Shown piece after piece: positions 60,836 through 64,000 of a stretch of 64,000 bases of DNA (its first letter is position 1; every line of letters starts with the position of its first letter). A program made the position numbers and the translations under genes. Under the pieces are notes generated by a model. The model searched no databases, was not told the DNA's origin, and saw nothing but the letters and a program-made list of their open reading frames with translations. Where the stretch lies: IMG/VR virus record IMGVR_UViG_3300037231_000119, positions 98,447 to 162,446 of that record, one strand, 5' to 3'. This DNA comes from a virus.

Positions 60836-62335
60836 ATGAAAAAGAAAAAAGACGAAAACCTACTTATTAAGGCCTATAAATATCCTCTAATTCTTTCTGC
60901 GGGACAGGAAAAAATGATTAGGTCCTGGATGGAACAGGAAAAGTACATATACAATTTCTTTATACAAAAACGTCAATACTTACTTTCCCTAAAAAGATCA
61001 AATTCGGAAGAATACGAGAAAGAATATAAGAAGGGTTTTGCTAAAACGGCCCGTGGAAAACAAGATGTGTTCGCCTGGAAAACGTATTGGAGCTGCGTAT
61101 ATAAGGAATTAGTAAAATCTGAAGAGGTTCTAAGGGAGTCTACAAAAGCAGAATATGATTATTGGCGATTTTCTAGTTTGGGAGATCCCTCTATTTCTCT
61201 CCCAACAACATGCGTTGAGCATGCCTGCGGAACCATAGAAAACATTTTTCTGGCCTATAAGAAAATGTGGGAGTCCCAAAAAGACAAAAAACGAAAAAGT
61301 AAGAAGAGGAAGGGAAAAACGAACCTCTTTCATCCCGAACAAAAGTTTTTAGTGGACGACACGTCTATACCTTGCGGGATAAAAGAAAATGACTGTTCGA
61401 TTGCCATACAGGGCAACTGCACGGCTAGGGTGACTGGCTTTTCAAAAATCGCCAAGGGTAACTATAAGGGGACTAAAGTCCCAAAGAGCCTGAAAATACA
61501 CTATCCGAAACAACACAGGGTTCCTGACGACGCTAGGGTTACCCAGCTCAGAATTATTAAGGACGGAGAATCGTTTTTTCTAAATGTGACCTTTGAGACA
61601 CAAAATAGGGCTGTCGGAGTCCTAGTCAATAATAGGCCCGTTGTCGGTATGGACTTAGGAACGGATAATAAAAAAAGCAAGAATTTTATATCTATGTCCG
61701 ATGGAAGTTTTGAAAGTTATCGCAATTATGAATCCTGCCGATTAATGGATTCTCTAGAAAAAAAGAAGCGTAAGATGCAAAAAGGGCTTAGGAATAAAAA
61801 AGGGGGAAATAAAAATAAGAGAGAGAGGCAGTCTAAAAATTATAAAAAGGCATATGCCAAGATTGCCAAAATAGACGCTCGAATTGCGGCTACTAGAAAA
61901 TATCATTCCAAGATGATCGCCAGCAATATGGCTGAGAGGTTTTCCGCTATTTATATGGAAAATCTGTCAATTGGAAATATGACGGCATCGGCTAAGGGCA
62001 CAAATGAAAGTCCTGGGAAGAATGTCAGAGCTAAATCTGGACTCAATAGGGCTATGTTGAATGTTGCGGCCTATGACTTTAAACAAAATCTTATCAAAAA
62101 GGCTAAAGAGTTTGGAACTGAAATATTTCATGTAAATCCTAGACTTACATCGCAAAGGTGTCAGGAATGCGGATTCACAAGTCCTAAAAATCGCAAGGGA
62201 ACTAGGTTTAAGTGTCAGAAGTGCCATTATGAGACTCATGCTGACACCAACGCCGCTAAAAATATCAAAGAGTTGGGTGAAAGCGGGCTTAATAGTATTA
62301 AGGAACTTCCTCCTAAAATTAAGACGATCCTATGA
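60836..62335 (+). CDS. CRISPR-associated TnpB/Cas12f-like RNA-guided RuvC nuclease (about 499 aa)
   Basis: GGGAG SD before the ATG at 60836. KAYKY.L....Q...YN OrfB-type N-terminus; RuvC-I GMDLG; Ruv[16 protein letters not shown]...[16 protein letters not shown]; zinc ribbon TSQRCQECG...FKCQKC; Ruv[14 protein letters not shown]. Confidence 0.9.
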
Positions 62336-63165
62336 AAATGCCATTCGACACCCTCATTACTGATAGACAGCCTTTCTTTTTCATTGAAAGGGCCTCTATC
62401 ACTGTAAGTGGTCAATGTATAGTGGCTAAGCGCAAGGACGGTAATGTTAATATACCGGTTTCTTCCACTCACTGTTTATTGTTGGGCAATGGTGTCTCTA
62501 TAAGCTCAGAAGCGGCAATGATATGTGCTAAACATGGGTGCTATGTGGCCTTCGTAAAAGGGGGATTGAACGCGCACTCGGTTTGGCACTGCGGAAGGTA
62601 CTCAAAACCAGAAAACTTAGTTAGACAGGTTAAGAACCATAGCGACCCCGTGAAGAGGATCGAGATAGCTAAAAAATTGATGCGACTTAGGTTAAAACAC
62701 ATAAATGAGGATTTTGTAAAAAGTATGGATCTTAACTCTATAGACCGATGTGTCACCATAGAGCAAATATTGGGCCTGGAAGGCTCTATAACTAGAAAGA
62801 CATACGCTGCGCTAAATTCTAGAAATGGCGTGGGATTCAAAAGAGATTCGCAGTCAAGGGAGGGCATAAATTCTAGTCTAACGATCGCCAATAACGCTCT
62901 ATATAACTATGTAGCCACCATTCTAGTCTCTTTGGGTCTTTCCCCCTCAATAGGCTTTCTTCATGGCCAGACCCGGCGTGGAGGTCTAGTATTCGATATA
63001 GCGGATGTCTTTAAGTATCCTGTCTTTATGGAGGAAGTGTTTTCGGGTCAATTTTCTGAAAATAATCAGGCACTTATGAGAGAAATGTCTAGAAAACTGA
63101 GCAAAAGCCGTAATTTCTGGACTAAAGAAATTATCTCAGTTACGCAGGAACTTATATGTTCTTAA
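62332..63165 (+). CDS. cas1: Cas1 integrase, I-E/I-F lineage
   Basis: NIPVSST.CLLLG.GVSIS..A; catalytic E in LGLEG, H in GFLHG and D in [12 protein letters not shown]. Confidence 0.93.
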
Positions 63166-63425
63166 TGGTTAAAACTTCTTCCAAAAATAAGGATATTTTG
63201 CAGTCTCTCAATTCTCTTCTTTCTAGAATAGACACTAAGGTTTGGATAGGACAAGTAACTCAAAGAGTTCAAAGGTCGGTAGTTTTAAGTCTTAAGTTGG
63301 ATATTGGCTCAGAATCGGTATATGGAAATATTTCTAAAAATGTATGTAATTCTAGTTTTTTTAGTGTAAGTGATGGGAATATTAACGAAATAGAAATGTA
63401 CGAAATATTAAAAAGAAATATTTGA
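63156..63425 (+). CDS. cas2: Cas2 (I-E/I-F-like, stand-alone)
   Basis: 89 aa, overlapping the cas1 stop. LLSRIDTKVWIGQVTQRV resembles I-E Cas2 LLEVRAGVYVGDVSAKI. Confidence 0.7.
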   Translation: MFLMVKTSSKNKDILQSLNSLLSRIDTKVWIGQVTQRVQRSVVLSLKLDIGSESVYGNISKNVCNSSFFSVSDGNINEIEMYEILKRNI

Positions 63426-63450
63426 CAAAATACCATAAATAGGAGACACT
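63422..63450 (+). promoter_or_regulatory. Promoter for the tracr-like RNA (TTGACA-17-GACACT)
   Basis: Perfect -35 at 63422-63427, with the same geometry as other promoters in the window. Predicted TSS near 63457. Confidence 0.55.
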
Positions 63451-63456
63451 TATTTC

Positions 63457-63664
63457 AGTACCGAGCTTTCTCTCGGGAATTAAAGCCTGGTAGGGATCTC
63501 ACCAATCCTCAGAGAGGTGGCGAAAGCCGTAAATTAGTGGAAAAGTAGAGTCTAAGTTGGCAACAACATTCTCTTCTTAGTAGAACTATCCTCGAAAAAC
63601 CCTTAAACGGGAAAGAAACAGGAAACATCCGTAGACTCCCCGCCCTGTAATGGGGCGGGGTTTT
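63457..63664 (+). ncRNA. Putative tracrRNA/omegaRNA-derived scaffold
   Basis: No ORF. Hairpins CCGAG/CTCGG, GGC-GAAA-GCC and GTTG-GCAA-CAAC. Anti-repeat CATCCGTA (63626-63633) is complementary to TACGGATG in the repeat. Confidence 0.65.
63638..63664 (+). terminator. GC-rich hairpin plus T-tract ending the tracr-like RNA
   Basis: CCCCGCCCT-GTAAT-GGGGCGGGG-TTTT. Confidence 0.75.
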
Positions 63665-63693
63665 ATAAAAAGTTTATATTTATTAACAATAGG

Positions 63694-64000
63694 GTTTTAG
63701 GTGATACGGATGGCAGAAAAGGATAGACTTCGACGTGATGTCCGAACGCCGTTGTTTTAGGTGATACGGATGGCAGAAAAGTGCTGTGTATAATCCCAGT
63801 TCAACAGTTACACGTTTTAGGTGATACGGATGGCAGAAAAGGGGATGGTTCAGACCAGTTTCAGCCTGGTTTAGTTTTAGGTGATACGGATGGCAGAAAA
63901 GGCTAACGATATTTGTTCTTTTAAGAACTGTCTGTTTTAGGTGATACGGATGGCAGAAAAGAAATAATGAACTCTTTCTAAGACTTCTAGCTTGTTTTAG
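63694..64000 (+). CRISPR. CRISPR array with repeat GTTTTAGGTGATACGGATGGCAGAAAAG (28 nt) and 32-nt spacers; continues past the window end
   Basis: Identical repeats at 63694, 63754, 63814, 63874 and 63934, plus a partial copy at 63994; five unique 32-nt spacers. Orientation is inferred from the AT-rich leader and the anti-repeat. Confidence 0.97.

Follow-up and report, generated by a model that had tools for sequence, protein, structure and literature searches.

A phage-borne candidate type V CRISPR-Cas variant that joins a TnpB-like nuclease to Cas1-Cas2 of the type I-E/I-F clade

To our knowledge, the characterised phage-borne type V systems (Cas12j, Cas-lambda, Cas12p and Cas12r) are described without adaptation genes of their own. 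Cas14 loci carry cas1, cas2 and cas4 together with repeats of about 36-37 nt. The locus described here resembles those V-F (Cas12f/Cas14) systems in its miniature TnpB-derived RuvC effector, its long tracrRNA touching the repeat twice and its downstream array, and adaptation genes are likewise present in some V-F loci; it differs in having 28-nt repeats, a Cas1-Cas2 pair of the I-E/I-F clade and no Cas4. With Cas12n (V-N/V-U4) it shares size class, closeness to TnpB and use of a tracrRNA, but in Cas12n the 3' end of the effector ORF runs into the tracrRNA region (PMC12216341), whereas the tracrRNA here has its own putative promoter and lies after the stop codon of cas2 or of the effector, with no ORF overlap. 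The Thermus Lalka phages likewise encode a TnpB-like type V effector, Cas12r, whose array geometry is I-E-like (29-nt repeats and 32-33-nt spacers) and for which a role in mobile-element conflict has been proposed; Cas12r works without a tracrRNA, the spacer-derived portion of its crRNA lies 5', and its phages lack Cas1-Cas2, so that host I-E adaptation has been proposed (bioRxiv 10.64898/2026.04.20.719267). The present family, in contrast, brings its own Cas1-Cas2 and tracrRNA. Another miniature Cas12 of phages, Cas12p ("Cas12 hacker"), lies close to the root of TnpB and has a tracrRNA of ~185 nt, a 37-nt repeat, a GTN PAM and a dependence on thioredoxin (bioRxiv 10.1101/2025.01.20.633832), but its relation to the present effector is at the level of fold only (9JFS, E 2.7e-13, 14% identity), and it was absent from the results of the effector's PDB sequence search. 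The IS200/IS605 TnpB proteins and their omega-RNAs share the fold and a guide scaffold that ends in a pseudoknot beside the guide; here, by contrast, there is no TnpA, the gene is single copy, the scaffold is split into tracrRNA and repeat, and a multispacer array and an integrase module are present. On the class 1 side, phages or mobile elements also bear adaptation modules from this Cas1 superclade in the type I-F system of Vibrio phage ICP1 and in L179, an I-Fv-like locus; repeats there measure 28 nt and spacers 32-33 nt, but the effectors are of the Cascade type, with Cas3 and Cas6, and the repeats are palindromic. Altae-Tran et al. (2023, PMC10691335) reported that adaptation modules had been captured at least 12 times, and they list 40 V-U branches without names.

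The locus is a complete CRISPR system of 3.5 kb in a phage genome of 162 kb, comprising the nuclease, Cas1-Cas2, a tracrRNA and 14 repeats, and it occupies the end of the 64,000-nt stretch that was analysed (the window). Its features are collected in Table 1. The effector, cas1 and cas2 genes overlap and all of their reading frames are open (window positions 60836-64000): the ATGA at the start of cas1 overlaps the effector stop codon, and cas1 and cas2 overlap by 10 nt. They are followed by a noncoding gap of 268 nt (63426-63693) and the array, the order given by an earlier reading made from the sequence alone. The first 127 nt of the record are identical to its last 127 nt, and this overlap, which falls inside the array, implies a circular or permuted genome of 162,319 bp; the array runs on past position 64000 into the start of the contig. 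That side, where the sequence-only reading had left room for further cas genes, holds the rest of the array and then ordinary phage genes, with no Cascade or Cas3 gene. The absence of cas4, cas6, Cascade genes and tnpA noted in the window extends to the whole 162-kb genome, which also lacks Cas3 and any Y1 transposase (PF01797), has only one TnpB-like gene and encodes no second effector.

Table 1. Features of the phage CRISPR-Cas locus, in window positions except where contig positions are given
Feature	Position	Strand	Basis or remark
Gene X, phage gene, 67 aa	60630..60833	+	left cassette boundary
Effector, TnpB/Cas12-like, 499 aa	60836..62335	+	guided_TnpB model, RuvC residues, fold search
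cas1, 277 aa	62332..63165	+	I-E/I-F superclade, active site intact
cas2, 89 aa	63156..63425	+	predicted Cas2 fold
Putative tracrRNA promoter	63422..63450	+	read from sequence
tracrRNA, ~210 nt	63457..63668	+	covariation over 6-8 lineages; terminator prediction
AT-rich leader, short	63669..63693	+	alignment A2 across lineages
CRISPR array	63694..64000, then contig 1-628	+	28-nt repeats, 32-nt spacers
X' fragment	contig 629-703		directly after array

Judged from its sequence, the system has one effector, whose RuvC domain is split as in TnpB. The RuvC residues (D273, E375 and D470) and the four cysteines of the zinc ribbon (C442, C445, C460 and C463) are invariant across 13 homologs (alignment A1); the RuvC-III region, in which the effector resembles the TnpB of IS200/IS605, reads ADxNAA, with NAD in most members and HAD in this effector. 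The NCBIfam guided_TnpB model (NF040570) matches at 114.9 bits, above its cutoff of 100; the PADLOC models for Cas12f (2e-44) and Cas12u4 (5e-44, nearly full length) and the Pfam model Cas12f1-like_TNB (3e-18) match as well. None of the curated Cas12 subtype cutoffs is reached: the scores were 68.3 bits against 450 for Cas12f2 (NF049972) and 72.9 against 350 for V-U2 (C2c8; NF038192), and the IS200_TnpB model gave 78.7 against 425. The predicted structure, of only moderate quality (pLDDT 74.5), has AsCas12f and ISDra2 TnpB as its top fold matches, with AsCas12f (8DZJ) the best at E 1e-15, although identity to the solved Cas12f proteins is 16-19% and the TM score about 0.4. The best PDB match by sequence is RdCas12n (9J09, E 2.8e-19), in an alignment that covers the RuvC half only. 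Together, the HMM and fold matches place the effector equally far from Cas12f and TnpB.

The adaptation module appears to belong to the I-E/I-F clade, although the subtype-specific Cas1 cutoffs are not reached: the general Cas1 model (TIGR00287) matches at 137 bits against a cutoff of 71.7, whereas the I-E model (TIGR03638) gives 136.1 against 215.6 and the I-F model (TIGR03637) 103.7 against 150. The active-site residues E150, H211, D222 and D225 do not vary across 17 sequences. In the tree, Cas1 falls in a separate clade of short Cas1 proteins (SH-aLRT 100%) whose next relatives are I-F Cas1 proteins and which contains one class 1 locus, the I-Fv-like L179, where Cas3fv, a Cas7fv-like protein and Cas6 accompany the sister Cas1. 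The nearest Cas1 among deposited phages is that of ICP1, at 28.7% identity, and a Cas1 scan of one genome collection gave mostly ordinary I-F Cas1 among the matches listed. The cas2 product had no match in the HMM search. Its AlphaFold model (pLDDT 91.9) has E. coli I-E Cas2 (4MAK) as the best PDB match (TM 0.70/0.81, probability 1.00), followed by I-E Cas1-Cas2 complexes and then I-F Cas2/3, and on this model we are confident in predicting that the protein is a separate, unfused Cas2 folded like that of type I-E. The union of a TnpB-like RuvC nuclease with I-E/I-F-clade Cas1-Cas2 in a phage, as the sequence-only reading had it, is thus borne out by HMM, tree and Cas2 fold.

The array has a strict period of 60 nt; 13 of its 14 repeats have the same sequence, and each of the 13 spacers is 32 nt long. 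A AAAGTTAATAT-like leader motif is common to several lineages, and the leader may act in integration or as the promoter of the array. No protospacer for any of the 13 spacers was found in the phage itself, in related loci or in 50,697 deposited phages; spacers 1 and 2, the two tried against IMG/VR, gave none there, and none was found in the related phage genome G001. Conversely, no spacer of the related arrays matched this phage. A further sequence, L269, considered as an independent copy of the array that might record spacer turnover, was set aside, being 100% identical and ending at the first repeat.

The stretch of about 200 nt that had been proposed as a structured RNA corresponds to a predicted tracrRNA of ~210 nt, starting ~1.1 kb past the effector stop codon; in relatives lacking Cas1 it starts after that stop codon. 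The putative promoter consists of TTGACA, a 17-nt spacing and GACACT, with the -35 box overlapping the cas2 stop codon. This weak -10 was not listed by a consensus promoter scanner; a similar arrangement (a TTGAC-like box, ~17 nt and a TAnnnT-like -10) lies upstream of the RNA in L010, L013, L014 and L174-L177. The RNA begins with a 5' hairpin (63461-63476, loop CTTTCT at 63466-63471) and carries toward its 3' end a conserved GAAACAGGAA (63615-63624), the anti-repeat CATCCGTA (63626-63633) and a strong intrinsic terminator (63638-63660) followed by a run of T. Covariation indicates that it pairs with the repeat through two helices. Cognate anti-repeat/repeat duplexes, though short (only 8-11 bp), have energies of -11.4 to -14.3 kcal/mol in seven lineages, with 0 to 31 of 2000 shuffles as good. 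The helix between hairpin loop and repeat tail has six of six Watson-Crick pairs in eight lineages with five different sequence pairs (chance 1.2%). RNAalifold recovers the hairpin and the anti-repeat helix unaided. In the three-helix structure as a whole, 95% of cells are paired and 13 of 20 pairs have changed on both sides in a compensatory manner; none of 500 shuffles was as good, and slid registers gave 26-61%. The single-sequence fold of the tracrRNA is unexceptional (z = -1.0), and no Rfam family matches it. The repeat appears to serve two masters, its center and 3' tail covarying with the tracrRNA and its ends presumably being conserved for the integrase.

The unit of effector, tracrRNA and array is present in at least nine other metagenomic lineages (L010/L011, L012, L013, L014+L183, L174-L177 and L180), several of them clearly phages, with effectors that are 31-51% identical. 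Downstream of the effector, an array or its first repeat is present in the window and in L010/L011, L013, L014+L183, L174, L175 and L176; L177 has a single repeat, and the sequences of L012 and L180 end before the array. The same Cas1-Cas2 accompanies the unit in five of these other lineages, or six with that of the window, whereas Cas1-Cas2 is missing from four lineages that carry the effector with tracrRNA and array. Lineages with Cas1 occur in both deep branches of the 21-member effector clade, interleaved with those lacking it. This spread across the whole clade does not support the "probably recent" recruitment that had been suggested for the locus; rather, the link between effector and Cas1-Cas2 is an old one that was repeatedly lost. 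A scan of IMG/VR with a single protein gave no relative of the effector, and an alignment-based scan gave only one full-length relative, L014; a further metagenome scan was swamped by generic TnpBs because its patterns were derived from the conserved RuvC core, and a protein atlas returned generic TnpB clusters only. The locus belongs to a small, old phage-borne family, which makes it a candidate for a new variant of type V and not an isolated chimera of recent date; we found no description of this family in a comparison that V-U6 to V-U45 fall outside. The family couples one of the smallest RuvC effectors to a working-looking integrase in ~3.5 kb including the array. With the sister Cas1 in an I-Fv-like locus, it also offers a clear example of modules being exchanged on phages between class 1 and class 2 systems. 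The covariation also gives a tracrRNA/crRNA design, so the 499-aa nuclease could be tried as a compact editor.

The locus is likely to be a miniature CRISPR-Cas system of type V, complete and probably active, that is carried by a large phage and for which we infer DNA cleavage, a PAM, active spacer uptake and targets. In the proposed mechanism, Cas1-Cas2, an integrase of the I-E/I-F type, would measure 32-nt spacers and insert them at the leader-proximal repeat. The array and the separately promoted tracrRNA would both be transcribed from the plus strand; the 3' anti-repeat would pair with repeat nucleotides 12-19 and the loop of the 5' hairpin with the repeat's final 7 nt, adjoining the spacer, the two pairings making a pseudoknotted scaffold of the omega-RNA/Cas12f kind. 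This dual RNA would guide the nuclease to cut DNA matching the spacer, and the phage would most likely benefit through action on competing phages, other mobile elements or host loci. The 28+32 geometry, the clade of the Cas1-Cas2 pair and the sister Cas1 in the class 1 locus would also fit an array and integrase that serve a class 1 (I-F/I-E) system, with Cascade and Cas3 supplied by the host and the TnpB-like gene being an unrelated IS remnant. This is extremely unlikely, as the repeat is not palindromic, unlike that of L179, its center and 3' end covary with a tracrRNA that always accompanies the effector, and the four lineages without Cas1-Cas2 retain effector, tracrRNA and array; TnpA is absent, and there is a single TnpB-like copy. 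The reading as an IS605 copy beside a class 1 array was accordingly rejected. It is very improbable that the system binds without cutting, silencing its targets as Cas12m or Cas12c do, or that the locus is decaying and inactive: that no spacer target was found would agree with either, as would relatives such as L013, in which the repeats are degenerate and Cas1-Cas2 has been lost, but neither the RuvC triad nor the zinc ribbon is damaged or varies among homologs, 13 of the 14 repeats are alike, the spacers share one length, and all frames are open and overlapping.

The right-hand end of the array may bear on how the cassette moves. The ~70 nt past the last repeat (X') are 87% identical to the 3' end of gene X (E 2e-20), with homology starting at the repeat/spacer boundary and with differences that preserve the peptide save for one V-to-I change. 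Judged from these sequences, X' is a recombination or homing scar, which is new here. It is possible, though unlikely, that the cassette is or was a self-propagating element moving by RNA-guided homing, an activity that could operate besides an ordinary role in immunity. The last repeat would then read into a fixed guide matching the cassette-free X alleles of sister phages; such an allele, once cut in a co-infection, would gain the cassette through repair templated by the genome that bears it, the resident X escaping because it is recoded and X' because it lacks a PAM. Over its first 32 nt, X' agrees with the X allele of L012, a syntenic phage, at 30 positions and with the resident X at only 27 (mismatches at guide positions 1, 6, 12, 15 and 21). 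Both X alleles are flanked 5' by TTGTC or TTGTA; at X' the repeat takes that place. Homing would also agree with a cassette position that differs in each related phage. Against it, this is the only scar, no flank duplication having been found in L010, L013 or L014/L183; a single spacer-protospacer recombination or an illegitimate junction would give the same picture without drive; and the X' guide keeps two mismatches to L012. That the cassette acts as a natural RNA-guided "gene drive" among phages, its X'-derived guide cutting cassette-free X in co-infecting relatives, seems distinctly unlikely; if true, the system would retain the homing logic of TnpB plus an adaptive array. With its shifting position and its X' scar, the cassette prompts one to ask by what route entire CRISPR units pass from one phage to another. 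In L012 the homolog of gene X encodes 66 aa, in the order SLT-X-Y-effector, and in L177 the flanking DNA directly follows the single repeat, an arrangement that resembles TnpB and favors homing.

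The cassette at the end of the window, in which genes for a 499-aa TnpB/Cas12-like effector, Cas1, and Cas2 are accompanied by a tracrRNA gene and a CRISPR array, is best read as a miniature type V system, predicted to be functional and adaptive and to depend on its tracrRNA, that belongs to a phage-restricted family. Three overlapping plus-strand genes are followed by the RNA gene and then by the repeats, confirming the arrangement described in the sequence-only reading. The virus record is 162,446 bp long, with the window as its final 64 kb, and contig nt 1-127 are identical to window positions 63874-64000, an overlap that lies inside the array and includes two unique spacers. 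This terminal identity indicates a circular or circularly permuted genome of 162,319 bp, complete yet classed as "linear" in the record, whose assembly was opened within the array. Read across the contig ends, the full array contains 14 repeats, of which one differs by a single substitution, and 13 spacers of exactly 32 nt each; none of these spacers had a protospacer in the phage itself, in related loci, in 50,697 deposited phages, or in one related phage genome, and two of them compared with IMG/VR had none there either. Sequence past position 64000, where the same reading had suggested looking for further cas genes, holds the rest of the array at the contig start and then small phage genes and giant tail-fiber-like genes, with no cas genes beyond the array. 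The complete phage genome contains a single TnpB-like gene, lacks Y1 TnpA and Cas4, and has no detectable Cascade, Cas3, or Cas6. At 28.9%, the G+C content of cas2 lies below that of the cassette (39.1%) and that of the genome (43.6%).

Features of the cassette and of the remaining phage genome, in window positions
Feature	Position	Strand	Remarks
Large phage gene with intein	1995-5108	-	LAGLIDADG homing endonuclease domain
GroEL-type chaperonin	5734-7512	-	
ResIII helicase gene with intein	9003-11582	+	Hom_end domain
DnaE-type DNA polymerase III alpha subunit	29318-32872	+	
IMP dehydrogenase/GMP reductase	42368-43501	+	
Gene X	60630-60833	+	Ends 2 nt before effector start; copied 3' end, 60759-60833
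Effector	60836-62335	+	499 aa; gene call
cas1	62332-63165	+	277 aa; start overlaps effector stop as ATGA
cas2	63156-63425	+	89 aa; 10-nt overlap with cas1
tracrRNA promoter	63422-63450	+	TTGACA-17 nt-GACACT; read from sequence
Gap between cas2 and array	cas2 end (63425) to first repeat (63694)	+	268 nt
tracrRNA 5' hairpin	63461-63476	+	5 bp
tracrRNA after 5' hairpin		+	Order: variable middle, conserved GAAACAGGAA, anti-repeat, terminator
Terminator	63638-63660	+	Strong
CRISPR array	from 63694	+	Identical 28-nt repeats, 60-nt period

Promoter equivalents precede the RNA gene in every lineage of the family, and in every lineage the anti-repeat is complementary to the center of the cognate repeat, with both sides varying between lineages. 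The anti-repeat and repeat center are CATCCGTA and TACGGATG in the window, CGTACATA and TATGTACG in the related locus L010, TAACACACTAT and ATAGTGTGTTA in L174, and TTATGCGT and ACGCATAA in L177. Duplex energies for cognate pairs were -11.4 to -14.3 kcal/mol, against about -4 to -9 for most noncognate pairs, and only 0 to 31 of 2,000 shuffles matched the cognate duplex. In a second contact, the 5' hairpin's 6-nt loop pairs with the 7 nt at the 3' end of the repeat, one nucleotide being bulged; this helix has 6/6 Watson-Crick pairs in 8 lineages, using five different sequence pairs (chance rate, 1.2%). RNAalifold, unaided, finds the hairpin and the anti-repeat helix. In the three-helix structure, 95% of cells are paired and 13 of 20 pairs show changes on both sides, values that none of 500 shuffles reached, while slid registers gave 26 to 61%. 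Support for the RNA comes from comparison across lineages, as its single-sequence fold is unremarkable (z = -1.0); an Rfam search returned no family match. The second helix extends up to the spacer itself, which places the guide 3' of the scaffold, an arrangement shared with the omega-RNA of TnpB and the guide RNAs of Cas12f. The repeat ends (GTTT[T/A]A... and ...AAAG[G]) are constant across lineages and the center drifts, a pattern that fits a constraint imposed by the integrase.

The effector passed only the generic NCBIfam guided_TnpB cutoff (114.9 bits; cutoff, 100) and fell below the curated cutoffs for Cas12f2, C2c8, and IS200-TnpB, and the PADLOC Cas12f and Cas12u4 models matched it at about 1e-44. 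Its top PDB sequence match (E 2.8e-19, RuvC half only) was 9J09, identified as RdCas12n (PMC12216341), followed by AsCas12f. In a fold search, its AlphaFold model (pLDDT 74.5) was about equidistant from AsCas12f, ISDra2 TnpB, ISFba1 TnpB, CnCas12f1, Cas12p, and TranC, with E values of 1e-15 to 1e-12, TM of about 0.4, and 14 to 19% identity. Residues D273, E375, and D470 and four zinc-ribbon cysteines are invariant across 13 homologs.

Full-length effector relatives (31 to 51% identity) were found on a handful of metagenomic contigs, and none was present among 50,697 deposited phage genome records. The order effector-Cas1-Cas2 is seen in L010/L011 (a 156-kb contig that encodes a portal protein and a chaperonin), L012, L014 (a 135-kb IMG/VR phage with its array at the opposite contig end, L183), L176, and L180, and L013, L174, L175, and L177 lack Cas1-Cas2 and carry the RNA gene and repeats directly after the effector. 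In a maximum likelihood tree of family members and the next-best TnpBs, all of the effector relatives formed one 21-member clade (SH-aLRT 96) in which effectors linked to Cas1 are interleaved with effectors that lack it; the sisters L012 and L013, which are 68% identical, illustrate this, the former having Cas1 and the latter not. The deep split in the Cas1 clade (L014/L180 versus the rest) mirrors the effector tree. Together, the interleaving and the mirrored split argue that the association of effector and integrase is old and has been lost repeatedly. The proposal of a TnpB joined to a class 1-type adaptation module thus holds for the architecture, and its suggestion that the recruitment was recent does not. 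In L013, the repeats are visibly decaying, as might be expected once adaptation had been lost; the array there (L013:2400-2830) has variable repeats and irregular spacing. In L177 (2826-3070), the effector and tracrRNA are followed by a single repeat and directly by a flanking gene, a TnpB-like "solo guide" arrangement that may be an intermediate or a collapsed array.

Cas1 scored above the generic Cas1 model cutoff and below both the I-E and I-F cutoffs, and its catalytic residues E150, H211, D222, and D225 are invariant across 17 sequences. The 89-aa cas2 product had no HMM match; its AlphaFold model (pLDDT 91.9) has a Cas2 fold, with Escherichia coli I-E Cas2 (4MAK, TM 0.70/0.81), I-E Cas1-Cas2 complexes, and I-F Cas2/3 as the nearest solved structures. 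In the Cas1 tree, the effector-linked sequences form their own clade (SH-aLRT 100), which also takes in one dissimilar locus, L179. That locus encodes Cas3fv-like and Cas7fv-like proteins, Cas6, Cas1, and Cas2, and its array combines a palindromic 28-nt repeat with 33-nt spacers. At 31% identity, the next relative comes from a canonical I-F1 locus (Csy1-4, Cas2-3). The adaptation module therefore belongs to the I-E/I-F superclade, and on mobile elements it has passed between effector modules of class 1 and class 2. HMM scores lean toward I-E, and neighbors and array geometry lean toward I-F. In a scan of 185,579 species genomes, 33% identity was the best among the matches listed; most of the others listed (25 to 30%) came from Gamma- and Betaproteobacteria, among them Acinetobacter, Halomonas, Moraxella, and Vibrio, and are taken, from the taxa alone, to be I-F Cas1. 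The closest Cas1 among the 50,697 phage records was the I-F Cas1 of Vibrio phage ICP1 (28.7%). The L179 system (positions 1-8700 of an 84-kb metagenomic contig) is I-Fv-like and also includes a 507-aa protein of unknown kind and 26 palindromic repeats. A 61% identical Cas1 (P0273, NCBI HEY5236254.1) is encoded by a 2.1-kb contig that was binned as Rhabdochlamydiaceae; no other taxonomic label was seen for the effector/Cas1 family, and this one is a weak clue to the host.

Altae-Tran et al. 2023 (PMC10691335) inferred that TnpB gave rise to Cas12 many times independently, with 40 unnamed V-U branches and adaptation genes captured at least 12 times, and the 2025 classification repeats the inference with about 50 independent events (PMC12669027), so that this kind of event is already known. 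No published description of the effector-Cas1-Cas2-tracrRNA family was found, and the phage-restricted family is a candidate type V subtype that may coincide with one of V-U6-45. Judged from their descriptions, Cas12n differs in that its tracrRNA region and effector ORF overlap, Cas12p in its 37-nt repeat and need for thioredoxin, and Cas12r of Lalka phages, despite I-E-like repeats, in lacking both tracrRNA and Cas1-Cas2.

The cassette occupies different neighborhoods in different phages: in L010 it precedes a helicase gene, in L176 a ribonucleotide reductase gene lies about 3 kb away, and in L013 it sits between homologs of window-phage genes located at 13 to 19 kb of the genome. These differences imply a unit that moves between sites. 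In the window phage, the cassette is flanked on its left by the 67-aa phage gene X, and the 70 nt following the last repeat (X', contig 629-703) are 87% identical to the 3' end of X (E 2e-20). The syntenic phage L012 has the order SLT-X-Y-effector, and the window phage has SLT-X-cassette-X'-Y. The X' copy begins at the repeat/spacer junction and keeps its reading frame, its differences being almost only synonymous, and its first 32 nt match the L012 X at 30/32 positions but the resident X at only 27/32. This scar fits either recombination of a spacer with its protospacer in a competitor's X gene or an RNA-guided homing event via a read-through guide; it is a single example, no similar flank duplication having been seen in L010, L013, or L014. 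Elsewhere in the genome, the intein-bearing ResIII helicase gene has a homolog in L010 that is without the insert.
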